From positions 810,001 to 842,000 of the forward strand of contig OY776328.1 of assembly GCA_963675515.1 (NCBI GenBank): a stretch of 32,000 nucleotides of DNA, in the 5' to 3' direction. Origin of the DNA: Coprobacillaceae bacterium. GTDB taxonomy: Bacteria; Bacillota_I; Bacilli_A; Erysipelotrichales; Coprobacillaceae. How positions within the stretch are numbered: position 1 is the first letter of the stretch; the number at the start of each line of letters is the position of its first letter. The translations under genes were made by a program, and so were the position numbers. A model generated the notes under the pieces. The model ran no database searches and had not been told where the DNA came from. It was given only the letters and a program-made list of their open reading frames with translations. Below, piece by piece: positions 3,145-30,511 of the stretch.

Positions 3145-3887
3145 TACCATGTCTTGACATCAAGGATGGCAAGGTTGTCAAGGGTGTCAACTTCGTCGGA
3201 TTGAAGGAAGTCGGAGATCCGGTTGAACTCGCCAAACGCTATGACCTCCAGTGCGCCGACGAGGTTGTGTTCCTCGACATCACCGCTTCCTACGAGGACC
3301 GGGGCATCATCCGTGATCTGATTGCCAAGGCTGCCAGCGAGCTGTCAATCCCGTTGGCAGTCGGGGGCGGAATCCGCACAATCGACGATTTCAGGATGAT
3401 CCTGGCATCGGGGGCTGACAAGGTTTCGGTCAATTCGGCGGCAATCGCCAATCCCGATCTGATCAAGCAGGCCAGTGACGAGTTCGGGGTGCAATGCGTT
3501 GTCATTGCCATCGATGCCAAAAAGAACGACCAGGGCCGCTATGACGTATATGTCAAGGGTGGCAGGGAAAATACCGGACTTGACCTGGTCGAATGGGTCA
3601 AAAAATGCGAAAGTCTTGGAGCGGGCGAAGTCCTGCTGACCTCGATGGATGCCGATGGCACCCGGGCGGGATTCGATATCGACATGCTCAATGCGGTATG
3701 CGAAGTTGTCAATATCCCGGTCATCGCTTCGGGAGGATGTGGCAGCGTCCAGGATATCGTCGATGTTTTCGAGAAGACGAATGTCGATGCGGCCCTGGTC
3801 GCTTCCCTTTTCCACTTCAATGAAGCGACAGTCGAGGATGTCAGAAATGAACTGACCAAATACAATATTCACGTAAGGAGGGTCTAA
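3126..3887 (+). CDS. hisF: imidazole glycerol phosphate synthase, cyclase subunit
   Basis: 253 aa. Motifs: [36 protein letters not shown] and ASGG. It overlaps the hisA 3' end. Confidence 0.94.
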
Positions 3888-6925: not shown

Positions 6926-8597
6926 GCACAATCAAATCATGCTTATTGAAAGCATCCTACAAGACCGGGCTTATTGATTGATGAAGTTTTCTGGTTTTGA
7001 AAGTGTTTTTAAATATTGGAAAAAGACGACTCTTGTTTTTGAATCGTGGTATATTTGTAAGCAAGGAGCTAACTATATTTAAATCAAGTGTTTTTTGATA
7101 ATTAGCTGAATTTATTGTTAGATTTTTGAAAAGTGAATTTGTGTACACTGAAAACAACCACACAGTGGCCTTGGAATTTATTTTACAGTTGTAAATTATT
7201 TGAGTTCCGATTCGTCAAACGTGATGTTTTCAGATAACAGTTTATAAATTACTCTTATTAGTTTTCTAATCGAATGTCCTTGAGCGCAGCGATGTGATTT
7301 ACCTTGAGAACGTTTTAGGTTATAATAACTATTGAAAGTGGAGTTGTGGGTGCATACTGGAAGAATGCATTGGTAAAGTGTCTTTCTCAAATAACGTGAA
7401 CCACGTTTTGACAAAGCAGTTTGTGGGGCGTTGTATTCTCCGGATTGATATATTCCGGGATCAACACCTGCAAAACCGATAACTTTAGCTGGGGAGCTAA
7501 AATTGTCGAGATCCCCAATTTCACTTAATATTGACATTCCTGAGTATATACCAATGCCAGGGATAGTAAAGATAGGAGAATTTAGTGCGATGGCTAGTTC
7601 TTCTATTTTTTTATCCACTATTTCCAAGTGCTGCTCAGATAAATCAAGGGATTCAATAAGCATTTTGATTTCCATGGTAATTATTTCGTTGTTCTCGCCG
7701 ATTGATTGTTTAGCTGCTTCGCGAATTGCCAAGGCATCAACCTTCACAGTTCTACCTTTTCCTTGTTGCCGCAAGACATTTTTAAGATGAGCAAGATTGG
7801 CATTGGCTAGATTGTATGAGTTCCCAAACTCTCTTAAAATAGCCATGTAAGCCCGAGAATACTTGGTTTTGAACCAACTGTTTATTTCAGGAATTACGGT
7901 ATCAATGCACTTTTGAAGTCTGTTTTTAAGCTGGTTGATATCTTCAGTAAGTGTTGCGTGATACCGGGTAAGTTCTTTGGCTTGTTTCAATGCCAACTTG
8001 CGTTTTGTAACCTTGGTGTAGTTCTTGTCGAACAGCACAGAGCAGATCAGGAAAGTATCTTTCTTATCGTTTTTGGTCTTCCTGATTTTTCCACGACGCT
8101 TGGCATCAGTTGTCAAAGGATTTATCATCCCGACTTCGTAGCTGTTTGATACTAGAAAATTTACGATATTGTCACCGTAGTGACCTGTCGCCTCTAGTCC
8201 GACAATATGCCTTGAAGAATTGAATTTTCTTGTGTTTTTAAGAAATAAGTCAAATCCATTACGGCTATTGGTGAAGAAAAAAGGTTCGACCAACACTTCG
8301 CCATTTGAGTCAACAACGCAGGCACAGTGTTTGAATTTACCTACGTCAATACCGATGTAATACATGATAACACGTCCTTTCGTAATAGGTGAGATGTGAT
8401 ATATCCACATACAAGGTATCAAAGATCCTGGTGCAAAATACAAGTTCAAAGACTTATCTAACTAATTTCAATTCAGATACGAAGATGTGGCAATTTCCTC
8501 CTCGAGGTAGTCAAGCTACAGGAATAAAACATCAAAGTACACATTCACAATTCAATTCTATAACAAAAATAAAAGAAAGGAAAATGTATATCATAAA
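6926..8597 (-). mobile_element. IS110-family insertion sequence (only a bounding interval is given; the exact ends are not resolved)
   Basis: An AT-rich block sits between the CDF terminator and the promoter of the GH1 genes. It contains a single IS110-type transposase. This family lacks classical terminal inverted repeats, so I could not place the ends. Confidence 0.55.
7196..8365 (-). CDS. IS110 family transposase (DEDD N-terminal domain plus C-terminal HhH domain)
   Basis: The start is chosen at MYYIGIDVGKFKHCACVVD (the IS110 hallmark), 28 codons inside the track ORF. Later motifs: VGLEATGHY, IPGIG..SGMSILSEIGD..NF and SG......LSKRGSRYLR..LY. Confidence 0.9.
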   Translation of the reverse strand: MYYIGIDVGKFKHCACVVDSNGEVLVEPFFFTNSRNGFDLFLKNTRKFNSSRHIVGLEATGHYGDNIVNFLVSNSYEVGMINPLTTDAKRRGKIRKTKNDKKDTFLICSVLFDKNYTKVTKRKLALKQAKELTRYHATLTEDINQLKNRLQKCIDTVIPEINSWFKTKYSRAYMAILREFGNSYNLANANLAHLKNVLRQQGKGRTVKVDALAIREAAKQSIGENNEIITMEIKMLIESLDLSEQHLEIVDKKIEELAIALNSPIFTIPGIGIYSGMSILSEIGDLDNFSSPAKVIGFAGVDPGIYQSGEYNAPQTALSKRGSRYLRKTLYQCILPVCTHNSTFNSYYNLKRSQGKSHRCAQGHSIRKLIRVIYKLLSENITFDESELK

Positions 8598-10025
<1,428 letters not shown>

Positions 10026-10038
10026 AGAAGGAGATTAG

Positions 10039-11486
<1,448 letters not shown>

Positions 11487-21062: not shown

Positions 21063-22118
21063 ATGTCCAAGAATAAATTAGAGGGAATCAGTTTCTTTGA
21101 ACGCTACTTGAGTGTCTGGGTGGCACTATGCATGGTTCTTGGGGTTGCCATCGGCCAGTTTGTGCCGGCCATTCCCGAATTCCTGACCCGGTTCGAGTTT
21201 GCCAATGTTTCAATCCCAATCGCCATTTTGATCTGGCTGATGATCTACCCGATGATGATGAAGGTTGACTTCGCAAGCGTCAAGAATGTCGGCAAGAACC
21301 CCCAGGGTCTCTATGTGACCTGGGCTGTCAACTGGCTGATCAAGCCGTTCACCATGTTTGGGATTGCCTACTTGTTTTTCAATATTGTCTTTGGCAGCCT
21401 TATTTCCAGTGAACTGGCCCAAAGCTATCTTGCCGGAGCGGTGCTGCTCGGGGCGGCGCCATGCACGGCGATGGTATTTGTCTGGTCACACCTGACCAGA
21501 GGCAACAGCGCCTATACGGTAGTGCAGGTTGCGACCAATGACCTGATCATCCTGGTGGCGTTCACTCCGATTGTGGCGTTTCTCCTTGGGGTAACAGGTA
21601 TCGCCATCCCTTGGGATACCCTGATCCTGTCGGTGGTCCTGTTCGTAGTCATTCCTTTGGCTGGCGGGATTTTCACCCGTAGCAATGTGATCAAAAACAA
21701 AGGGGAAGAATACTTCACAAAGAAATTCATTCCCAAGTTCAACAATGTGACTATCGCCGGATTGCTTGTCACCCTGGTCTTGATCTTCTCGTTCCAGGGC
21801 CATGTCATCCTGGAAAATCCGCTGCATATCGTCCTGATCGCAATTCCGCTGATCATCCAGACATTCCTGATTTTCGCACTAGGATACGGGGCAAGTTATC
21901 TGTTGAAACTGCCTCATTCGATATCCGCACCGGCTGGAATGATCGGGGCTTCGAACTTCTTCGAACTGGCCGTGGCCGTGGCGATCGCCCTGTTTGGGGC
22001 TGAGTCGCCGGTGGCTCTTGCGACAATTGTCGGGGTGCTCGTAGAAGTTCCGGTAATGTTGGTCCTGGTGAAATTTGCGAACCAGACCCGCAATTACTTC
22101 CCACAAGAAAAGGCTTAG
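21063..22118 (+). CDS. acr3: ACR3 family arsenite/antimonite efflux transporter
   Basis: The start is chosen at MSKNKLEGISFFERYL. The protein is ACR3-like throughout: FFERYLSVWV, IPIAILIWLMIYPMMMKVDF, WLIKPFTMF. The conserved Cys context is GAAPCTAMVFVW. Confidence 0.85.
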   Translation: MSKNKLEGISFFERYLSVWVALCMVLGVAIGQFVPAIPEFLTRFEFANVSIPIAILIWLMIYPMMMKVDFASVKNVGKNPQGLYVTWAVNWLIKPFTMFGIAYLFFNIVFGSLISSELAQSYLAGAVLLGAAPCTAMVFVWSHLTRGNSAYTVVQVATNDLIILVAFTPIVAFLLGVTGIAIPWDTLILSVVLFVVIPLAGGIFTRSNVIKNKGEEYFTKKFIPKFNNVTIAGLLVTLVLIFSFQGHVILENPLHIVLIAIPLIIQTFLIFALGYGASYLLKLPHSISAPAGMIGASNFFELAVAVAIALFGAESPVALATIVGVLVEVPVMLVLVKFANQTRNYFPQEKA

Positions 22119-22144
22119 ATGAAAAATTCATCCAAGCCTCTTTT
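22111..22144 (+). terminator. rho-independent terminator of acr3; also the 5'-exon hairpin used by the group IIC intron
   Basis: AGGCTTAGATGAA-aaa-TTCATCCAAGCCT (12 of 13 bp) followed by CTTTT. The stop codon TAG (22116-22118) lies in the left arm. The intron begins at the next base. Confidence 0.8.
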
Positions 22145-22666
22145 GTATGCCGGGCATGGCATATATCTAGGTGGTGAAAGTCCACTGTGGGGGTGATTTC
22201 GCAACTGCCAACCACTAGCCAATATCAAGGGTGTCCATCGCGAGGTGGAATCTGAAAGAAGATGGAGGCAAAACCCTGGTCCGAGGAACACGAATCACAT
22301 CAGGCATGTAATAGGGACGAGCGTGCAAAACAACGCAAAGTCATAAGAGGTTGCGGAATGATACTATTACATGTAAATGTGGCGGATATATGGGGTGAAA
22401 GATATATGACCTTATCCCGGGAGATCTTGCGAGGGAGCAATCCTAGTAACAACGAATCGCAAGAAGTCAGCAGACGTCGTAGTAGCGAGGAAGTGGCTGT
22501 AATGGCCATGGAGTGAAGGACTGAATAAATCTATCAGTTATTAAAATTAGGCTTGATTTCATCACGCAAAACCGCAAAGACAGTCGAACACACTAGTAAA
22601 GCCCGAAAGAAGAATGTAGGGAAAGTGAGCATGATGAATAGCGAAATCAATGGAGGTAATGGAAAC

Positions 22667-23950
22667 ATGAAAACTGATAACGAATTACTGGAACAAATGC
22701 TTAGCCATACCAACCTCAAACAAGCGTATGTACAAGTTAAACGAAACAAAGGTGCATGCGGAATTGATGGTATGGATGTCTACCAACTTAAGGGATATCT
22801 GGATGAACATCTGGATGAAATTAAGGCAAGCATAATGAACCGCACGTATAAACCACAACCGGTTAGGAGAGTGGAAATACCAAAAGCCGATGGCGGCACA
22901 AGAAATCTAGGAGTGCCTACAGTCATCGATAGATTCATTCAACAAGCTATCGCCCAGGTACTAACACCAATCTATGAACCAATCTTCAGTGACAACAACT
23001 ATGGTTTTAGACCCAATAGATGTTGTGAAATGGCAGTTATCAAGGCATTGGAATACATGAACGAAGGATTCCAATGGGTCGTGGATATTGACTTGGAGAA
23101 GTTTTTCGACAATATCAACCACGATAAACTTATTACATTGGTGATGAAGGATGTAAAGAGCGGTGAGATTGTATCGCTTATTAGAAAATTCCTGGTAAGT
23201 GGAATTATGATTGACGATGAATATAAGGAATCTATAGTCGGTACTATGCAAGGTGGTCCGTTAAGTCCACTACTATCCAATATATTTCTTAATGAATTGG
23301 ACAAGGAAATGGAAGCTAGGGGGTTACACTATACACGTTATGCCGATGACTGTATGATTTTCGTTGGGAGTAGCAAAGCAGCTGACAGAGTCATGGCATC
23401 AATAAGCAAATTCATCGAAACCAAGCTAGGCCTGAAAGTCAATATGACCAAAAGCAAAGTTGCAAAACCCAACGACATAAAGTATTTGGGATTTGGATTC
23501 TACTATGATACTTTCAACCAGCTTTGGAAAGCAAAACCGCATGCCAAATCAATAAAGACACTTAAAGAAAAATTGAAGGAATTGACTAATCGAAGTTGGT
23601 CAATTCCCTGGGATTATAGATGCTTAAAGATACGGCAACTAATAGTCGGGTGGATAAACTACTATAAAATAGGTAACTTCAAAGGTACGTGCGAAAACCT
23701 CGACGGGTGGATTAGATTTAGAATAAGAATGTATCTCTGGAAGAAATGGAAAACCATTAAGAACAGGAGAAAACAACTTAGAAAACTTGGAGCAAAACGA
23801 TGGCAATATGAATCATGGTCAAACTCTAGGAAATCATACGCCCGGTGTGCTAGCACATTTCTTAAGACAAGGGTCACAAACGAGTTACTCAAAAGAAAAG
23901 GCCTAGTATCACTACTAGACCAATATCAGTTAAAACATATTTCAGTATAG
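22667..23950 (+). CDS. group II intron reverse transcriptase/maturase (RT plus X domain, no En domain)
   Basis: The start is chosen at the ATG 10 nt after GGAGG (MKTDNELLEQML). In-frame ATGs at 22631 and 22634 are alternatives. RT blocks: NKGACGIDGM, IPKADGGTRNLGVPTV.DR..QQA, GFRP.R and YTRYADDCMIF. The maturase X motif (WINYY) is present. There is no HNH or Zn motif at the C-terminus. Confidence 0.9.
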   Translation: MKTDNELLEQMLSHTNLKQAYVQVKRNKGACGIDGMDVYQLKGYLDEHLDEIKASIMNRTYKPQPVRRVEIPKADGGTRNLGVPTVIDRFIQQAIAQVLTPIYEPIFSDNNYGFRPNRCCEMAVIKALEYMNEGFQWVVDIDLEKFFDNINHDKLITLVMKDVKSGEIVSLIRKFLVSGIMIDDEYKESIVGTMQGGPLSPLLSNIFLNELDKEMEARGLHYTRYADDCMIFVGSSKAADRVMASISKFIETKLGLKVNMTKSKVAKPNDIKYLGFGFYYDTFNQLWKAKPHAKSIKTLKEKLKELTNRSWSIPWDYRCLKIRQLIVGWINYYKIGNFKGTCENLDGWIRFRIRMYLWKKWKTIKNRRKQLRKLGAKRWQYESWSNSRKSYARCASTFLKTRVTNELLKRKGLVSLLDQYQLKHISV

Positions 23951-23956
23951 ATTTAA

Positions 23957-23988
23957 ACCGCCGTATGCCGGCCGGCTTGTACGGTGGT
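23957..23988 (+). ncRNA. group II intron domain V
   Basis: ACCGCCGUAU-GCC-ggcc-GGC-uu-GUACGGUGGU. This is a 10 bp lower helix, a 2 nt bulge and a 3 bp upper helix with a tetraloop. The CGC catalytic triad is characteristic of class C. Confidence 0.85.
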
Positions 23989-24015
23989 GTTATCCCGATA
24001 TCGGGATAACACCAC
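23984..24015. repeat. 32 bp perfect palindrome at the intron/RIT left junction
   Basis: GTGGTGTTATCCCGAT|ATCGGGATAACACCAC. The left 7 nt are the 3' strand of intron domain V. The rest is RIT sequence built from the TTATCCCGA motif. Confidence 0.95.
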
Positions 24016-24096
24016 TTATACCGACTTTTGGATTATCCCGACAATTATGTATTTTTGAGGGATAGTCCTTTTTTGGATTATTAAAAGTCGGGATAA
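24009..24096. repeat. RIT left terminal inverted repeat (88 bp)
   Basis: ACACCACTTATACCGACTTTTGGATTATCCCGACAA... matches the reverse complement of 30369-30456 with 4 mismatches. It contains TTATACCGAC (24016-24025), TTATCCCGAC (24033-24042) and the inverted GTCGGGATAA (24087-24096). Confidence 0.95.
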
Positions 24097-24097
24097 C

Positions 24098-25147
24098 TCA
24101 TATCAATCCATAAAGCCTTTTGATCAGTTCTTCATCATTTTCAAAATCCAGATTGTATTTATTAGAAATATTTATTAAGGGGCTAATTGCTTCTGTAGCC
24201 TGCTCAATTGCCTGTTTTTTCATTTCTAATGTTGGCTGCGCATAGAATTCCATTGTTGTAGAAACTTGCGCGTGTCCAAGCCATTCGGAAATAAGTGGTA
24301 GCGGCATTCCACCATGATATAAATGCATGGCTCTAGAATGGCGGAACATATGCGGATAAATATGAATAGGTACTTCTTCATCTACATCATGAGCGGATGC
24401 ACAATATTTATCAATAAATTTTTGAACAGCGTCTGGCGACAGTTGACTGATGATTTCCTTTCGTTTTGAACAAAAAACGAAGCTATCGTCTTTTGATTTT
24501 AAGTGAAATATCGATAGATAATTTTTCAAGTGGTTTACCGTTTTTTCCATAATTGGGACTAATCTTACTTTACTGCCCTTTCCAGTTAGTTTCACGTACG
24601 GGACTTCACTAAATAGGAATAGGTCGCCAATTTTGAGATCCAAAATTTCCTGAATTCTAGCTCCAGTGTCATACATTAGTATCATGAAAACCAAATCCCG
24701 TATTCCTTTTTTTGTTTTTGTGTTTGGCTGCCTAAGTAATGTTTCTAAAACATTTTCGGAGAAGTATTCAATCTGATTATTCTTGGACATCTTTTTCATT
24801 GGGACCGCAAGTAGTTCTTGGTAATATGCCATTAAAGAAATATTACGAGAGGCAACATATTTGTAAAACGAACGTATGGCTGCCAGTTTCTGATTTCTAG
24901 TACTGCAGGACCACCCGGAATATTGCTCACCGTCATCCAAAAAATTCTCAAGCAGCTTAACCGAGGTCATCTCGAAGCAAAATTCAGATAGTTTGATTTT
25001 ATTGGCGCTACATGCATGTTTTAGAAATTGATTCATAGTGATTTTATAGGATTTGATTGTGTTGAAGCTGTTTCCTTTTTGTTTTGGTAAGAAAGACTCA
25101 AAATAATCTCTAATCATTTTGAAGAAACATAATGAATTTTCAGTCAT
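24098..25147 (-). CDS. ritC: tyrosine recombinase, third gene of the RIT trio
   Basis: The start is chosen at MTENSLCFF, whose ATG overlaps the ritB stop. Catalytic residues: TGARIQE (Arg), HMFRHSRA (His-x-x-Arg) and LGHAQVSTTMEFY (His and Tyr). Confidence 0.85.
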   Translation of the reverse strand: MTENSLCFFKMIRDYFESFLPKQKGNSFNTIKSYKITMNQFLKHACSANKIKLSEFCFEMTSVKLLENFLDDGEQYSGWSCSTRNQKLAAIRSFYKYVASRNISLMAYYQELLAVPMKKMSKNNQIEYFSENVLETLLRQPNTKTKKGIRDLVFMILMYDTGARIQEILDLKIGDLFLFSEVPYVKLTGKGSKVRLVPIMEKTVNHLKNYLSIFHLKSKDDSFVFCSKRKEIISQLSPDAVQKFIDKYCASAHDVDEEVPIHIYPHMFRHSRAMHLYHGGMPLPLISEWLGHAQVSTTMEFYAQPTLEMKKQAIEQATEAISPLINISNKYNLDFENDEELIKRLYGLI

Positions 25148-26090
25148 ACTTAGACACCTCAGGAATGATTGAGGAAAACCTTTCCCAATCAACTTCAGAT
25201 GATTTAATTAATTCCTCTGGTAGTAAGTGAATATAATAAGCCGTGTCTTCGAAATTGGAATGACCCATATAGGCACTCATGTAGGGAAGCAATGAATATA
25301 AATCTTCACCATCGTTTAAGAGTTTCATCATGACAGTTGTCGCCCAGCGATGACGTAAATCGTATACTCTTACACGAGCTCTACCACCCTCGGGTTTTAT
25401 CTCATCCCAAATCTTCAAGAATTCCGTCCTTAACCATTTTGAATGATATGGAAGCCCGGTTGGAGATGGAAAAACATAATCAGTATTTGGAAATATTAAC
25501 TTCATTTCATCGATATACTCGCGCATCATATCTGTTACATCAGCTGCCATTGGAATTAGACGTTCCTTATGATTTTTGTTTTTTCTAATAAGTATAGTTC
25601 CGTTATCCAAGTCCAAATCTTTTTTCATTATTTCACGACCTTCGTTTGGCCGAAGACCACAAAAGTATATCAATCGATAGATTACAGATATGATTCTATT
25701 TTTAGCTGTAATCGGTTTGATATATTTTTTACTATCAGCCATTTCAAAAATGGTTTTAAGCTCCATGTTTGTAAATATATAGGGTACATATCTTGTGATT
25801 TTAGGTAAGAAATTCAAATCAAGTACAAAATTGGAAGCTCCGTTCGCAAAAAGGTAAAGTGTAAATTGTCTTATTGATGACATTCTAGATCGAAAACTGC
25901 ACGCCTGCTCAGTTTTCCTTTGCACACACCAAGGCATGATCATTTCTTGAGTAAGCATTGTTTCACTGGGAAAATTTTTCTTCAAGTATCTGGAAAAATC
26001 TTTAAGATACCAAGAAGTTGGTTGCAACGAATACCCTAAATCAATTCGATAATTAATCATTTCGGGGATATATTCATATATGAATTTCAT
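25140..26090 (-). CDS. ritB: tyrosine recombinase, second gene of the RIT trio
   Basis: 316 aa. Catalytic residues: CGLRPNEG (Arg), YDLRHRWAT (His-x-x-Arg) and MGHSNFEDTAYYIH (His and Tyr). Confidence 0.88.
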   Translation of the reverse strand: MKFIYEYIPEMINYRIDLGYSLQPTSWYLKDFSRYLKKNFPSETMLTQEMIMPWCVQRKTEQACSFRSRMSSIRQFTLYLFANGASNFVLDLNFLPKITRYVPYIFTNMELKTIFEMADSKKYIKPITAKNRIISVIYRLIYFCGLRPNEGREIMKKDLDLDNGTILIRKNKNHKERLIPMAADVTDMMREYIDEMKLIFPNTDYVFPSPTGLPYHSKWLRTEFLKIWDEIKPEGGRARVRVYDLRHRWATTVMMKLLNDGEDLYSLLPYMSAYMGHSNFEDTAYYIHLLPEELIKSSEVDWERFSSIIPEVSKYD

Positions 26091-26183
26091 AATCTACCAT
26101 CAAGTGTTTCCATCGATAACGCACACTTTCTCAAACCCTCAACATCAAGTGAAATATATTGCTTAGTAGGTATGACTGATTGG
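26087..26183 (-). pseudogene. probable orphaned 3' end of ritA, left behind by the IS insertion
   Basis: The minus-strand frame is open from the IS3 boundary (..VIPTKQYISLDVEGLRKCALSMETLDGRL*). It ends in a TGA that overlaps the ritB ATG (ATGA), which is the coupling expected for trio genes. Its phase relative to ritA cannot be established. Confidence 0.4.
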
Positions 26184-27340
26184 TGACCTGGATAGGTTAC
26201 AATAAATTAGACAAGATTATAAGGACATGATAAAATCTTGTTAAATTTGTGGAGGATATTCAAAATGACAAAACGCAGACCTAAACGTACTTACACCGAT
26301 GAATTCAGAATCAAAATGGTTCAACTTTACAACAATGGGAAACCCAGAGCGGAAATAATCCGTGAATACGATTTGACAGCTTCAGCGTTCAATAAATGGG
26401 TTAAACGCTTCAATGACACGGGTTCGTTTACTGAAGCCGACAATCGATCAGATCATGACAAGGCGCTTATCAAGCTCCAAAAAGAAAACGAACGACTGAA
26501 GATGGAAAATGATATTTTAAAGCAAGCGGCGCTGATAATGGGACGAAAAGACAAGTAATCTTTGCAAATCAACACAAATACTCTATCGGCGCTATGTGCA
26601 AAGTCTTGAAAATCTCTCGGGCAACTCTCTACTACAAACCCAAAGGGCGTAAAGTGGATTCGAAGCTTGAAGATGAAGTAATAAAATCATTCAAAAACAG
26701 CAAGAAGAATTATGGAACACGCAAGATAAAAGATGACCTGGATGATTTGAACATGGTTGCCAGCAGAAGAAAAATTGCTCAAATCATGGACAAATACGGC
26801 TTGATCAGTAAATACACCATCAAGCAAAGACCAAAGCATTATGGCAAAGTAAATAATGACGATATTGAAAATCTGATCAATAGAAAATTCCAAGCAGAGC
26901 GGCCAATGCAATATTTAACCAGCGACTTGACCTACATCAAGGTGGCTGGAAAATGGAACTATATTTGTCTGATAATAGATTTATACAATCGTGAAATCGT
27001 TGGTAAATCTAGTGGTCAAAACAAAGACGCCAACTTGGTTATTAAGGCATTAAACGATATAAAAAGTGATTTAAGTGATGTCGAAGTATTTCATTCAGAC
27101 CGAGGCTCAGAGTTCAAAAACGAGATGATTGATAGGATATTGGCATTGAATGGAATCAAGAGATCGTTGAGTGCAAAAGGTAAACCGATTGATAACGCAG
27201 TATCAGAATCAATGTACAAAATACTCAAAACAGAATTCGCATTCAATCGACAATTCCGCAGTATCGACGAATTGTCATTGGAACTGTATGATTATGTCAA
27301 CTGGTTCAACAACAAAAGGAAGCATGGGAGCCTTAATTAC
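26184..27340 (+). mobile_element. IS3-family insertion sequence, 3' end truncated
   Basis: It has an orfA/orfB organisation with orfB in the -1 frame. The left end is tentatively at TGACCTGG (26184), with 26173 as an alternative. No right inverted repeat is present. orfB runs straight into the inverted repeat of the next IS. Confidence 0.7.
26265..26558 (+). CDS. IS3 family transposase OrfA (HTH plus leucine zipper)
   Basis: The ATG lies after GGAGGA. It opens MTKRRPKRTYTDEFRIKMVQLY..G....IIREYDL..S.F.KWVKR and continues to a coiled-coil (LQKENERLKMENDILKQAA). Confidence 0.88.
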   Translation: MTKRRPKRTYTDEFRIKMVQLYNNGKPRAEIIREYDLTASAFNKWVKRFNDTGSFTEADNRSDHDKALIKLQKENERLKMENDILKQAALIMGRKDK

Positions 27341-27367
27341 AACCTAAAATCCCGCGTAAATTTATAA
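26513..27367 (+). CDS. IS3 family transposase OrfB (DDE integrase core), C-terminus replaced
   Basis: The -1 frame is open from 26513 and reads ..VIFANQHKYSIGAMCKVLKISRATLYY. A candidate slippery site, A-AAA-G, lies at 26546-26550. The DDE residues are present in LTSDLTY, FHSDRGSEF and DNAVSESMYKILKTE. The last 9 codons (NLKSRVNL*) are encoded by the IS1634-like inverted repeat. Confidence 0.8.
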   Translation, partial: YFKASGADNGTKRQVIFANQHKYSIGAMCKVLKISRATLYYKPKGRKVDSKLEDEVIKSFKNSKKNYGTRKIKDDLDDLNMVASRRKIAQIMDKYGLISKYTIKQRPKHYGKVNNDDIENLINRKFQAERPMQYLTSDLTYIKVAGKWNYICLIIDLYNREIVGKSSGQNKDANLVIKALNDIKSDLSDVEVFHSDRGSEFKNEMIDRILALNGIKRSLSAKGKPIDNAVSESMYKILKTEFAFNRQFRSIDELSLELYDYVNWFNNKRKHGSLNYNLKSRVNL

Positions 27368-29132
27368 CAACACCTAAGGTAGCGGGATGTCGAATGCTTC
27401 ATAGATGATTCGCTGTTCCTTTGTTACTGGAGCAATGATGCTTTGGCCGTTGATATCTTGGGTACGCAACTTTGCAAGGATTTGGATAAGCTCCTTCATC
27501 GTGTGTTTCTTGTACAGTCCCTTGTCATTCATCACTTTGTTGATTTCTGACATGATCACCGATGCAATGAATCCGACAAATAATTTCCCTTGCATCGCAT
27601 TATCGCTATGTACTCTTAACCTTCCAAGGTCGATATTATTTTTTAGACGTAGGAAACCTTTCTCCACAACATCCTTATCCCGATATATCGTGATTGCTTT
27701 TTGAGCATCGCCGATGTCATTACTGATTAGCACAACCCAACCTGCGGTTTTAAGACTACGTTCAACAACGTCTGTCCTGATGTTGACAGTGTATCCACTG
27801 TCCTGTTTTTCAGATTTGCGGATAATTAGATACTTCACGCATTCGGCGTCATGTAGCCATTTTTCAGGGTTTTCAGTAACCTTTTGCCGGAGCAACGCTA
27901 TTGACGTATACAGGTCTTCACGGATTCCCGCAGCCTTTTTAGCGCTGTAGTAAATGTGGGTGTACAATTTGTGTTTGGAATCCCAAGAACGTTCCTTGGT
28001 TACTGCCCTCATTGAATTTCCGTTGATGACAATCGTGTTCTCCACACAATCAATGTCTTTCCGTTCGCTTTCAACCTGGTTCTTGGCAAAGGCCGACGAG
28101 AATGGCACTGAGATTAGGAATTTTACCGGTCCGTCACCCTTTTCATCAAGCATTTTATTAACGTTTGAAGCGCTGAAAAAACCTTTATCCATAACGACGG
28201 TGATGGCCCGGCTGCCAGTTGTGGCTTCGAATTGATCCAGTGTGTTTTTGAGAGTGCGGACATCTTTTTGACTGCCGCTGAATATGGTTTGAAACAAAGG
28301 TAGCCTTTTGGACTCTCCCATGAGCATGCAAATATTGATTTGTGGCAGATTATCATGATCACGATTATAGCCCCACTCCACGTCGTCAATCAACTCCGAA
28401 TAAGATGACGTTGAAGTGATATCCAAAGCCAGGTATTCATCATCTTTGTTTGCAGCATACCAATTTCGGTAGAAATCACTCCGTTGATTTGCGGTAAGAG
28501 AAATCAAAAGTTCGCTTATGCGCTGTGATGTTAATGAACCGACAGGATAGGATTGTGTCCCTGAAATCCATTCATTACAGTACATCATCGGGTCGCTAGT
28601 GGAAATCATGTAACAAGCAAGCATGAATATCTCTTGCCAGTGGTTTGGTATAGATCGTTCCAGGGCATCGATCAAGCCTGATTTTTCGGCAATGGTACGA
28701 TACAAATAGAAAAGGCCATATGAGCGTATAGAAGACTTCCGGATATCATCGATTGAAAACACTTTCTCGGTAGATGGGATCTCTATTTCGTGCCCAGCTA
28801 AACGAAGCTCTTCCAAATACTCCGGTTTATAGATCTTTTGTCCGGTCTTGGGATCAATTTTTCCAATGGAACGACGCTTTTGTCTTACCTGCCCGTCTTT
28901 CGTGCGGAATCCCTCAGCCAGATAAATATATTGATACCGGCCAACCTTCTGAATAACCTCATAACTCATCCAAACCACCTCTCTGTTGTTATAATAATTA
29001 TAACAACATCTAAGATAAAAAGCAAGCTATTTAGGGTGTTGATCAATAGAAAAACGGCTATATATCAAGGTTTCATGGATTTGAAGTATTAAAATATAGT
29101 TGTTGTTATAAAAATTTGCGGGAGCTTAGGTT
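27341..29132 (-). mobile_element. IS1634-family insertion sequence
   Basis: Imperfect inverted repeats of about 36 bp are present. The left copy, AACCTAAaaTCCCGCgtAAATTTATAACAACAcCTA (27341-27376), matches the reverse complement of 29098-29132. They enclose one IS1634-type transposase gene. Confidence 0.75.
27374..28969 (-). CDS. IS1634 family transposase
   Basis: The start is chosen at MSYEVIQKVGRYQYIYLAEGFR..DG.VRQKR.SIGK, the typical N-terminus, 5 nt after GAGGTGG. It is about 531 aa and DDE-type. Confidence 0.82.
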   Translation of the reverse strand: MSYEVIQKVGRYQYIYLAEGFRTKDGQVRQKRRSIGKIDPKTGQKIYKPEYLEELRLAGHEIEIPSTEKVFSIDDIRKSSIRSYGLFYLYRTIAEKSGLIDALERSIPNHWQEIFMLACYMISTSDPMMYCNEWISGTQSYPVGSLTSQRISELLISLTANQRSDFYRNWYAANKDDEYLALDITSTSSYSELIDDVEWGYNRDHDNLPQINICMLMGESKRLPLFQTIFSGSQKDVRTLKNTLDQFEATTGSRAITVVMDKGFFSASNVNKMLDEKGDGPVKFLISVPFSSAFAKNQVESERKDIDCVENTIVINGNSMRAVTKERSWDSKHKLYTHIYYSAKKAAGIREDLYTSIALLRQKVTENPEKWLHDAECVKYLIIRKSEKQDSGYTVNIRTDVVERSLKTAGWVVLISNDIGDAQKAITIYRDKDVVEKGFLRLKNNIDLGRLRVHSDNAMQGKLFVGFIASVIMSEINKVMNDKGLYKKHTMKELIQILAKLRTQDINGQSIIAPVTKEQRIIYEAFDIPLP

Positions 29133-30327
29133 ACAAAACACCCGTACAATACAGGTTGTCCTTATAAAAATTGTCTAAAAAAGTGTTGACTTTCCAACCC
29201 AAAAGCTGGGCAATCATTGTAACCGGAACACCGTTGATAATCAATTGAGTCCCAAACATCCGCCTAATAGAGTGGAAAGTGTTCCCGGTTTTAAGGGATG
29301 GTTCAATTCCAGCCTTTAATAGATACCTTCTAAAAAAAGAAGCGATAGAACAGCCGTCTTTAAGCCCCGTAAAAGGAGCTATGGATCTTATAAAAATACT
29401 ATTATCATCTGTTTTGGGTCTTCCATTTAGAATGTAGTCCGCAATTGCATTACAGACACTCTCAGTTAATGGCACTGATATGGGACTATTTGTTTTCCCC
29501 TGAACTATATTTAATTTGCGTTTTTTCCAATCAATATCTTCAAGCTGAATCCGTACTATATCTCCAGCTCTTAGCCCTGTCATTGCACCCAATATTATAA
29601 TCGCATAATTTCTTTTTCCGGTAGGTGTCTCCCTATCAATTGAATTTAAAATTCCTACAAGATCAATCATATCTATCGGCGGATATAATGCCCTGTCTCG
29701 TATTTTACCAAAGGAAACGATGGAGCTTATATCAAAATCAATCTTTTTATTTCTGTACAAATTAACTAAATATTTTTTCAAACAAGTGAGTATTCTATCC
29801 ATGGATTTTGGGTTATCCTTAGAGATGATTTTAATAAATTCCACTATATCGCTAGTACTTATTAATTTCGGTTGCAAAATATCATGATTGTTTAGAAAAT
29901 TTGAAAATAAATATAGGATTCGCTCTTCAAATTGAAGGGTCCTAATAGATACATCTCTATTTTTCAAATATTCTTTTATTGTCATTTTGAACCCTGATGA
30001 TATAGGGATTTCATCCTTAAATGTGAAAACTTTCCACTTGAAGGAACCGAAATCATTAAGTTCGGTGATCATTAAGACGCCACGCACTCTTTTATTATAG
30101 GTGGTCCTACTAATAATTTTGTTTTGAAGTTGCGAAAGATAGAGCTTTAGCAGTGAATCCATAATTTCTTGACTATAGTTGATTTGGTTTAAGTCAGAAT
30201 ATCTTTTCAAAATGGGGTTAAAGTAGCTGGATTCGTAGGCCTGAATGGTAAGTTCATTATAGCCTTGAGACTTCAGGTTATTTAAAGCAAGCTGAACTAA
30301 TTCGTCGATACTATTCAAATTTTTCAT
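29131..30327 (-). CDS. ritA: tyrosine recombinase, first gene of the RIT trio; its stop codon is created at the IS junction
   Basis: 398 aa. Catalytic residues: TGLRAGD (Arg), FHSIRRMF (His-x-x-Arg) and LLGWKVNTFLDNFY (Trp in place of the second His, then Tyr). In the TAA stop, the T comes from RIT DNA and the AA from the first two bases of the IS1634-like inverted repeat. Confidence 0.85.
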   Translation of the reverse strand: MKNLNSIDELVQLALNNLKSQGYNELTIQAYESSYFNPILKRYSDLNQINYSQEIMDSLLKLYLSQLQNKIISRTTYNKRVRGVLMITELNDFGSFKWKVFTFKDEIPISSGFKMTIKEYLKNRDVSIRTLQFEERILYLFSNFLNNHDILQPKLISTSDIVEFIKIISKDNPKSMDRILTCLKKYLVNLYRNKKIDFDISSIVSFGKIRDRALYPPIDMIDLVGILNSIDRETPTGKRNYAIIILGAMTGLRAGDIVRIQLEDIDWKKRKLNIVQGKTNSPISVPLTESVCNAIADYILNGRPKTDDNSIFIRSIAPFTGLKDGCSIASFFRRYLLKAGIEPSLKTGNTFHSIRRMFGTQLIINGVPVTMIAQLLGWKVNTFLDNFYKDNLYCTGVL

Positions 30328-30348
30328 TTCAAACTACCTCCTAACTAC

Positions 30349-30378
30349 ATTATAGACTGAAAATAAAATTATCCCGAC
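30349..30378 (-). promoter_or_regulatory. possible ritA promoter overlapping the innermost recombinase-binding motif
   Basis: On the minus strand, TATAAT (30354-30349) lies upstream of AGGAGG (30342-30337). The -35 position (30377-30372, TCGGGA) lies inside the motif GTCGGGATAA of the right inverted repeat. Confidence 0.4.
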
Positions 30379-30456
30379 TTTTAATAATACAAAAAGAGAC
30401 TATCCCTCAAAAATACATATTTGTCGGGATAATCCAAAAGTCGGTATAAGTGGTGT
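30369..30456. repeat. RIT right terminal inverted repeat (88 bp)
   Basis: It is the reverse complement of 24009-24096, identical at 84 of 88 positions. It ends ..GTCGGTATAAGTGGTGT. Confidence 0.95.
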
Positions 30457-30504
30457 GAGAGGTCGAAAATAAATAGGGAAACTATTTATTTTCTCCTACT
30501 CGAT
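30457..30504 (+). ncRNA. displaced group IIC intron domain VI and 3' splice site
   Basis: Removing 23991-30456 joins domain V (..GUACGGUGGU), GU and this segment. The fold is as follows:
- 30457-30459 pair with 30499-30501.
- A30498 is bulged.
- 30460-30462 pair with 30495-30497.
- A small internal loop follows.
- 30465-30476 pair with 30482-30493, closing a GGAAA loop.
A30498 is the 7th nucleotide from a ...GAU end at 30504. That matches the branch-point geometry and the terminal A-Y rule. Confidence 0.65.
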
Positions 30505-30511
30505 TTTATTA

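Follow-up and report, generated by a model that had tools for sequence, protein, structure and literature searches.

We analysed a 32,000-nucleotide (nt) stretch of the genome of a Coprobacillaceae bacterium (GenBank assembly GCA_963675515.1, contig OY776328.1, positions 810,001 to 842,000), which we call the window and in which coordinates are counted from the first letter. It contains a group II intron that is interrupted by a recombinase-in-trio (RIT) element. The insert (23990-30455, 6466 bp) consists of about 3455 bp of the element's own DNA and a 3-kb block of nested insertion sequences (IS), and the insertion point is the exact boundary between intron domains V and VI. We consider, with a probability of about 80%, that the RIT integrated between these two domains by conservative site-specific recombination, carried out by tyrosine recombinases across a 6-bp overlap that tolerates heterology. 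A preliminary description of the window, made from its sequence alone, had argued for conservative integration of a circular RIT and against DDE-like transposition. The choice between these two processes is upheld here: the element encodes only tyrosine recombinases, and a hexamer foreign to the target is found beside domain V in four related loci (L006, L016, L022 and L062) and in junctions of the L209 type.

Junctions of the element and the interrupted intron

The intron and the ends of the element are made up of the following features (ORF, open reading frame; TIR, terminal inverted repeat).

22112-22144, terminator-like hairpin that precedes the intron, which is inserted after it
22145-23989, plus strand, 5' part of the group II intron, IIC-like (domains I-IV, reverse transcriptase/maturase ORF, domain V, UG linker)
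22553-23950, plus strand, reverse transcriptase/maturase ORF, the intron-encoded protein (IEP), with Pfam domains RVT_1 and GIIM
23958-23987, plus strand, intron domain V (register from the RF00029 alignment of the uninterrupted relative L085)
23988-23989, plus strand, intron UG linker (register from the same alignment)
23984-23989, plus strand, X1, left hexamer GTGGTG, comprising the last 4 nt of domain V and the 2-nt linker
23990-24009, element-borne 20-bp perfect palindrome TTATCCCGAT-ATCGGGATAA, which supplies two inverted 'A' arms (the inner arms of both cores)
24010-24015, X2', inverted third hexamer CACCAC, spacer of the inner core
24016-24096, left TIR, with terminal arm B TTATACCGA at 24016-24024
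30369-30449, right TIR, ending in arm B' TCGGTATAA (30441-30449)
30450-30455, plus strand, X3, right hexamer GTGGTG
30456-30504, plus strand, intron domain VI and 3' end, UGAGAGG...CUCCUACUCGAU (by homology to L085)

The left junction reads ACG-GTGGTGT-TATCCCGA (23981-23998) and the right junction TCGGTATAA-GTGGTGT-GAGAGG (30441-30462), both as first described. GTGGTGT had been taken for a 7-bp direct repeat; both copies are indeed present (23984-23990 and 30450-30456), but the repeated unit is 6 bp long. The seventh base, T, belongs to the palindrome arm on the left, of which it is the first base, and to domain VI on the right, which it begins. Since the first base of the right flank is not T in other copies of the element (C in L023 and L027, A in L053), the unit has to be counted as a hexamer.

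A repeat finder returned a TIR of 88 nt with 95% identity (24009-24096 and 30369-30456), and also, at 23984-24015, the gapless perfect 16+16 palindrome that had been noted as 32 bp long. The left TIR contains two more TTATCCCGA motifs, at 24033-24041 (plus strand) and 24088-24096 (minus strand). The proposed 9-6-9 layout of the core, in which two 9-bp arms surround a 6-bp spacer, stands, and the arms are the same in the closest relative, L001. The mirror-image core TCGGGATAA-CACCAC-TTATACCGA is likewise found at 24001-24024, and we read it as a second, alternative core. The junction pattern is far beyond chance: the probability of a perfect 32-bp palindrome is about 4^-16 per position, and for seven matching bases placed right at the two boundaries of the element it is about 4^-7. 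Nine copies of the arm motif TTATMCCGA are found in the window where 0.47 would be expected, a count reached in none of 100 shuffles; 8 of the 9 are situated in the ends of the element (five left, three right).

The host of the insertion has the characteristics of a group II intron, namely domains I-IV (Rfam models RF02001 at 22234-22410, 127 bits, and RF01998 at 22430-22521), an IEP with reverse transcriptase and maturase domains, domains V and VI, and a 3' AY end. The domain V/VI model RF00029 has no match anywhere in the window; it scores above the gathering threshold on the uninterrupted L085 (4290-4367, 45.7 bits), and domains V and VI of the window were assigned via homology to this intron, not by a direct Rfam match.

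Three uninterrupted relatives of the intron (L085, L086 and L087) are present on one 2.6-Mb contig, with an IEP 83% identical to that of the window. All three read ...GTACGGTGGTGTGAGAGGTCG..., with one GTGGTGT and without the palindrome, the full reading of the empty site being ...CCGGACGGCACGTACGGTGGTGTGAGAGGTCGG...CCTCCTACTCGAT. BLAST aligns the L085 intron to the window in two segments, 22141-23990 (82% identity) and 30450-30505, which have 7 query bases in common. According to the RF00029 alignment, the stem of domain V ends with GUGG, UG forms the linker, and the U that follows starts domain VI. The 18-mer GTACGGTGGTGTGAGAGG is found uninterrupted in at least 120 metagenome contigs. As the uninterrupted introns are devoid of the 25 bp at 23984-24008, that stretch is not intron sequence, and the insertion lies exactly at the V/VI boundary. 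The preliminary description had predicted that precise removal of 23991-30456 would restore domain V followed by domain VI, and had named a different sequence at the V/VI linker of uninterrupted introns, or the presence there of these 25 bp, as grounds for giving up its reading; L085-L087 read exactly as predicted on all these points.

In the window (22101-22150) as in L085-L087 (2440-2475), the intron follows a terminator-like hairpin and a T-run, the hairpins being all different; this placement is the behaviour of class C (IIC) introns. Cluster look-ups for the source genome of the window returned more RitB copies (one full-length, two fragments) and a 427-amino-acid (aa) IEP on the same contig, and this genome therefore holds further RITs and introns. 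The cluster of the window IEP includes a member from a metagenome-assembled genome (MAG) of Erysipelotrichaceae.

Related copies and the hexamers they carry

Species-representative genomes were searched with a RitC profile, which yielded 80 loci, and TIRs and junctions were then located in these. The relatives come nearly all from Firmicutes-type genomes and MAGs. A common layout, tL - X1 - 20-bp palindrome - X2' - B...TIR / ritABC / TIR...B' - X3 - tR, where tL and tR are the two sides of the target, was recognised in about 36 loci with readable ends, as well as in distant RITs of viral contigs. X2 is 6 bp long throughout, except in one copy with a 1-bp deletion (5 bp). Inspection of other copies for a short direct repeat had been proposed as a check, and the repeat is found at the same two places in L001 and about 35 loci. 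About one third of the palindromes are imperfect, with 7 to 9 of 10 pairs.

Nineteen of the insertions, that of the window included, are at a V/VI boundary, and they affect at least six different introns or domain V sequences. The palindrome adjoins domain V in 19 out of 19 cases, while the rit genes are found in both orientations (12 versus 7). In L001, whose RitC and DNA are both 95% identical to those of the window, the element occupies another intron at another chromosomal place. Its arms and 20-bp palindrome are the same as in the window, but each of the three hexamers is GTTTGA, with a left junction GCG-GTTTGA-TTATCCCGATATCGGGATAA-TCAAAC-TTATACCGA and a right junction TCGGTATAA-GTTTGA-TAAGGGG, so that X2' (TCAAAC) tracks the flanking hexamers. 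The view of GTGGTG as a fixed core of the element must thus be given up for that of a copy-specific segment, comparable to the coupling sequences of Tn916 and Tn554. In L006, L019, L022, L062 and L048-L053, X2' is unlike X1. Only base 1 or bases 1-2 of X are conserved, as G[T/A] in the group that targets introns and as C[T/C] in a second group. The window subfamily is rare in isolate genomes, since an exact 27-mer of the TIR had no match in 185,579 genomes; the left half of the RIT had no blastn match in the plasmid collection.

Candidate hexamers were compared by folding domain V with each of them, with the following energies (kcal/mol).

L006, foreign X1 GTGCTG, -14.2; native GTTCTG, -18.2
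L016, foreign X1 GTTCTG, -12.2; native GTGGTG, -18.1
L062, foreign X1 GATATC, -13.9; native GTGGTG, -20.1

In L022, a foreign GTTCTG stands beside the same domain V that has GTGGTG in L005, L008 and L026. In these four loci, the foreign X1 gives a fold that is 4 to 6 kcal/mol worse than that of the native hexamer, or non-canonical. The L209-type junction, with GTGGTG beside a GAGCC...GGUUC domain V, is a fifth case. A duplication made by staggered cutting and filling in cannot be the source of a foreign hexamer inside the target, whereas strand exchange at the edges of X can.

Two copies of a second subfamily, L051 and L053, come from a single long-read contig of 2.56 Mb in a Pygmaiobacter genome and show no difference over 3663 bp (100% identity). 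Their hexamers differ in the following way.

L051, X1 CCGTTG, X2 CCTTAA, X3 CCACTT, palindrome on the RitC side
L053, X1 CCTTAA, X2 CCACTT, X3 CCGCTT, palindrome on the RitA side

The imperfect palindrome GTATCAAGAATTCCGGATAC holds its orientation relative to the genes in both copies. If the ends of L051 were joined, they would give B'-CCTTAA-palindrome-AAGTGG-B, which, opened at the other core, would yield L053. A single excision, followed by integration by way of the alternate core, would account exactly for all the differences between the two copies, and the relay of hexamers from one to the other provides the strongest evidence that the ends may be joined at some stage and that the mirror core is probably functional.

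We relied on pairings of X1 with X3 only where the assembly was complete or made from long reads; a single junction is short enough to be covered by one read and is safe. In peat metagenomes, contigs with one identical RitC (P0074; L208-L217) have three combinations of flanks: a domain V side with a domain VI side, two domain VI sides, and two domain V sides. The assembly may have taken different paths through a 3.4-kb repeat, or two copies in opposite orientation may really have undergone inversion. As the short-read contigs across this RIT show three of the four flank combinations, the test of polarity between X1 and X3 had to be restricted. Several of these loci have a second, different RIT within the reverse transcriptase gene of the same intron.

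Recombination model and alternatives

The process that we favour would operate as follows. The recombination site would consist of a 9-bp arm, a 6-bp overlap X and another 9-bp arm (TCGGTATAA-X-TTATCCCGA). In a joined-end form of the element, of which a circle is the simplest, the TIR ends would be bridged by X-[20-bp palindrome]-X', a dyad-symmetric junction with two inverted cores, either of which could pair with tL-X-tR in the target. A staggered exchange of strands at both edges of X would then produce tL-X1-palindrome-X2'-TIR...TIR-X3-tR. The palindrome would always end on the tL (domain V) side, and the orientation of the genes would be set by the core used, so that two alternative cores allow rit genes in either orientation while the palindrome stays next to domain V. 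The overlap would need to match the target only in its first one or two bases, and hexamers of the donor site would be carried to the next site, as are Tn916 coupling sequences or the fingerprints of Tn554 and SE elements. Three identical hexamers, as in the window, would arise when the element moves among introns whose domains V end alike. It would be natural to suppose that there is a class of half-site for each of the three recombinases, namely the TIR arm B, the palindrome arm A and the target arms. We infer from sequence the circular form, the exact cleavage positions, the exchange of one or both pairs of strands and the assignment of Rit proteins to arms.

Two properties expected of such a process are found in the data. 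The empty site has one hexamer and the occupied site has one per junction; and the flanking hexamers may differ from each other and from the target, as seen with the foreign X1 and in the L051/L053 relay. Concerning the circular intermediate put forward in the preliminary description, joined ends are implied by this relay, but the circle itself was not seen. A junction of the expected kind is found in a single case among all loci scanned: in L063 (4040-4150), a RitC-side TIR is followed head-to-tail by CTCTAA, a 20-bp palindrome, TAAGAG and 50 nt identical to the part of the TIR specific to the RitA side, and then by a scaffold gap and a second RitC end. It represents a circle that was assembled, or else a tandem dimer. 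Contigs of 3.3 to 3.5 kb from Logan and SPAdes were also considered as possible circles and rejected, as they stop inside or at the TIRs like a collapsed repeat, and have no junction information. In viral contigs, all ten RIT relatives are integrated, and L228 lacks a terminal direct repeat.

Several observations weigh against the proposed process. L063, a scaffold made from short reads and belonging to a distant subfamily, may be a tandem dimer. No circular junction of the window subfamily was found, the predicted pattern having no match in the IMG/VR viral contigs, and Nielsen et al. found no circle-junction read pairs for proteobacterial RITs (PMC5737581). The mixed left and right flanks of the short-read contigs that span the RIT in L208-L217 weaken the X1/X3 pairings. 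Among the junctions where this could be read, the hexamer that stems from the element adjoins the palindrome in 5, against a single-base exception in 1 (L008); simple segregation of a heteroduplex would give 50:50, and the excess is a hint of a strand bias, in a sample too small to decide. Finally, binding of proteins alone does not account for near-perfect TIRs of 88 to 160 nt.

An alternative keeps the same chemistry and the same site, with a single-stranded or strand-biased intermediate. One strand of the element would be copied or looped out, its long TIRs would fold so that B'-X-A pairs with A'-X'-B, and a single exchange with the target would then be resolved by replication, as for integron attC sites, the CTX phage and SE elements. 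From the anatomy of the junctions, a single top-strand exchange on such a folded circle is expected to yield exactly tL-X-pal-X'-TIR...TIR-X-tR. The polarity of the hexamers (5 out of 6 informative junctions) would also be explained, and SEs and Tn554 are described as strictly polar in the same way (PMC10214605). The TIRs (88 to 160 nt) are 95 to 99% self-complementary, spacers included, and RIT DNA was enriched after exonuclease treatment in the absence of a circle junction, for which hairpin intermediates were proposed (PMC5737581). However, a fixed, reversing single-strand exchange would never renew the hexamers, yet these differ between the window and L001 and are relayed between L051 and L053; unequal hexamers would leave a 6-nt bubble in the folded core; and the polarity sample is small (binomial p about 0.1). 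We regard this folded variant as unlikely, although the hexamer polarity, the unexplained self-complementarity of the TIRs and the exonuclease enrichment without a junction keep it alive.

Two further explanations fare much worse against the same data. The palindrome with its inverted hexamers could be what replication makes of a covalently closed hairpin end, left by protelomerase-like resolution of a linear RIT. The 32-bp palindrome of the window is perfect, the palindrome centre is itself a palindrome of 6 bp (in relatives GATATC, GAATTC or GTTAAC), and a hairpin has been proposed in the literature (PMC5737581). A replicated hairpin would nevertheless be symmetric, whereas about a third of the palindromes are imperfect and the asymmetry GTATCAAGAA-TTCCGGATAC is kept in both L051 and L053; moreover, X1 and X2 are unequal in L006, L019, L022, L062, L048-L053 and the L209 type, and an integrated copy has a palindrome at one end only. 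We therefore reject a hairpin-telomere origin as highly improbable. The remaining explanation is that the RIT is cargo of the intron and spreads with it by retrohoming, or that the 6-bp repeat is the target-site duplication of a DDE transposase. The two elements are repeatedly found together, and the window element does contain DDE transposase genes. These genes are, however, part of nested IS elements that are missing from L001 and have a 3-bp duplication of their own, and the element itself has no DDE transposase; the flanking hexamers are frequently not duplicates of each other. As to the intron, L001 is inserted in one with another IEP and another domain V, at least six domain V sequences are targeted, L030 and L031 are RITs in either orientation in copies of one intron of one genome, and three uninterrupted relatives exist. 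Both forms of this explanation are refuted by these observations, and we give them practically no weight. Conservative recombination through a double core accordingly stays our preferred reading.

Gene content, targets and known systems

The genes of the insert, and the secondary insertion that interrupts them, are as follows.

24098-25144, minus strand, ritC, tyrosine recombinase (Pfam Phage_integrase, 2.9e-31, and a SAM-like N-domain)
25140-26090, minus strand, ritB, tyrosine recombinase (Pfam Phage_integrase, 3.4e-22)
26087-26188, minus strand, 3' fragment of ritA, last 33 aa GHQSVIPTKQYISLDVEGLRKCALSMETLDGRL, with a conserved LG-H and the likely catalytic Tyr
26189-29196, secondary insertion of 3008 bp, outside the RIT proper, an IS3-family element with TG...CA ends
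26238-26558, IS3-family orfA (Pfam rve/HTH_Tnp_1 in the block)
26594-27367, IS3-family orfB (Pfam rve/HTH_Tnp_1 in the block)
about 27341-29132, DDE_Tnp_1 IS within the IS3-family element, with 36-nt inverted repeats
27374-28978, minus strand, transposase of the DDE_Tnp_1 IS
29197-30327, minus strand, 5' part of ritA, codons 1-377, 92% identical to the RitA of L001, without the C-terminal catalytic segment

The Phage_integrase domain is found on three minus-strand ORFs, 29131-30327 (ritA), 25140-26090 (ritB) and 24098-25192 (ritC), and these three genes, without any transposase, are the element's own recombination genes. The tyrosine recombinase genes follow each other in the order ritA-ritB-ritC, with one orientation and short overlaps, and are flanked by imperfect TIRs (88 nt, 95%), which identifies the insert as a RIT element; the window element has those defining features of RITs that are open to testing. 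RitC of the window has 544 homologues at E<=1e-20, the nearest being 95% identical, and in an alignment of 21 RitC sequences the listed invariant residues include R149, H265, R268, H291 and Y301. In the intact L001, the three genes are at 7832-9061, 9058-10008 and 10001-11050, with overlaps of 4 and 8 bp.

In the window, ritA is interrupted at codon 377 by the IS block, and its remaining 33 codons, with LGH...Y, persist at 26087-26188. The block is flanked by a 3-bp target duplication, ACC (26186-26188 and 29197-29199), and is missing from the RIT of L001, against which BLAST breaks at 26188/29197 with a 3-nt overlap. There are thus four levels of nesting in the window: intron, RIT, IS3-like element and second IS. 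As its ritA is split, the window copy is not autonomous, and could be mobile now only with RitA supplied in trans.

In L048, L052, L079, L082 and the window, the TIRs (88 to 160 nt) are 95 to 99% identical from end to end, including the spacers between the TTATCCCGA motifs. Their sequences are entirely different between subfamilies, which points to a concerted evolution of both ends that is so far without explanation.

The second subfamily comprises L047-L049, L051, L053, L061, L068, L079 and L081-L083, and its hexamers begin with C[T/C]. These elements are inserted directly after a conserved hairpin and a NNNGCTTG motif, while conservation is absent on the right-hand side of the site. In L053, L049 and L068, a MobA/VirD2 relaxase is encoded by the gene that lies upstream on the same strand (PF03432, E values from 1e-28 to 4e-33), and L218 has a relaxase and a NikA neighbour. 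The target may be the nick region of oriT, or the extreme end of a mobilisable element.

Tn916 and CTnDOT are excised and integrated by conservative tyrosine recombinase reactions, with cuts staggered by 6 to 7 bp. Their coupling sequence need not match the target and travels to the next site, and CTnDOT requires homology at one edge of the overlap only. The RIT overlap resembles theirs in its tolerance of heterology, with conservation limited to base 1 or bases 1-2 of X. Unlike them, RITs have three recombinases, long TIRs and neither Xis nor conjugation genes; their junction is dyad-symmetric with two cores, they insert in both gene orientations, and their choice of target is very strict. 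Sites of the loxP, FRT and dif type also have inverted 9-bp arms around a 6-bp asymmetric spacer, but the two RIT arms, the TIR arm B and the palindrome arm A, are unequal, neither of them is similar to the target arms, and identity of the spacer between partners is not required. Tn554 and the SEs are, like RITs, multi-recombinase tyrosine transposons with target specificity, and they carry a 6-bp 'fingerprint/footprint' from the donor flank to the new site (PMC10214605). They differ from RITs by the absence of long TIRs and of an internal inverted third hexamer, by a fixed orientation, and by the use of an extra non-catalytic protein (TnpC/Srap/Tfp), where RITs have three recombinases that are all predicted to be catalytic.

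Published RITs (Van Houdt 2009/2012; Ricker 2013) share with those described here the tandem ritA-ritB-ritC genes with short overlaps, the long imperfect TIRs, the several identical copies per genome and the interruption of other genes or mobile elements, such as radC and an IS66 tnpA in C. metallidurans (PMC3414803). Their archetypes are mainly alpha- and beta-proteobacterial, whereas our relatives are nearly all of Firmicutes type. RitA is described as having two core-binding domains and RitC an extra C-terminal helix, and among the simple tyrosine recombinases the subgroups of RitA/B/C are neighbours of that of TnpA (PMC8138268). The movement of RITs has never been reproduced, and a review table of 2023 gives target specificity, empty site and mode of movement as 'NT' (PMC10214605); the mechanism 'has yet to be deduced' (PMC5737581), and the need for three proteins was called hard to understand (PMC3414803). 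In a mobilome study, proteobacterial RIT DNA was enriched in exonuclease-treated DNA, which the authors read as protection from exonuclease (PMC5737581). The searchable literature contained no RIT att site, crossover region, circular junction, target rule or link to group II introns, with a possible overlap in Ricker et al. 2013. As far as this literature shows, the architecture of the RIT att site, the targeting of the V/VI boundary and the targeting of hairpin and GCTTG by the sister subfamily are new.

RITs have been known since 2009 and occur in many bacterial phyla, and the att site makes the open question of their mobility experimentally concrete. A 24-bp core, a predicted 50-bp palindromic circle junction, an 18-mer V/VI target and a rule of overlap inheritance can be used in experiments. 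A recombinase that tolerates heterology in the overlap and is yet exact in position is of interest for genome engineering, and the X-palindrome-X'-TIR signature could let annotation pipelines delimit RITs exactly. Insertion between domains V and VI should disable splicing of the intron, and RITs may thus be a natural antagonist, or a hitch-hiker, of group II introns. Taking the two subfamilies together, we tentatively suggest that Firmicutes-type RITs are specialised parasites of other mobile elements, in which a double att site and three recombinases would permit insertion in either orientation and with low homology, a few bases downstream of a DNA hairpin (the V/VI boundary of introns, or the hairpin and GCTTG by MobA/VirD2 relaxase genes), perhaps with one class of half-site per recombinase, and perhaps via a folded, strand-biased intermediate.

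Two minor observations concern other junctions. In L220 and L222 (about 3364-3430), the 3' end of a RIT-bearing intron (...CTACTCGAT) is directly followed by ATCCCGAATTCGGTATAACTCTTT, which looks like the palindrome/TIR end of another RIT; IIC-type introns, which seek hairpins, and RITs may insert into each other. L218 (about 2210-2310) and L219 (about 990-1090) contain an unrelated palindrome, about 100 nt long (centre AACCACAATATCTTGTGGTT), which looks perfect and is located just upstream of a truncated ritA.

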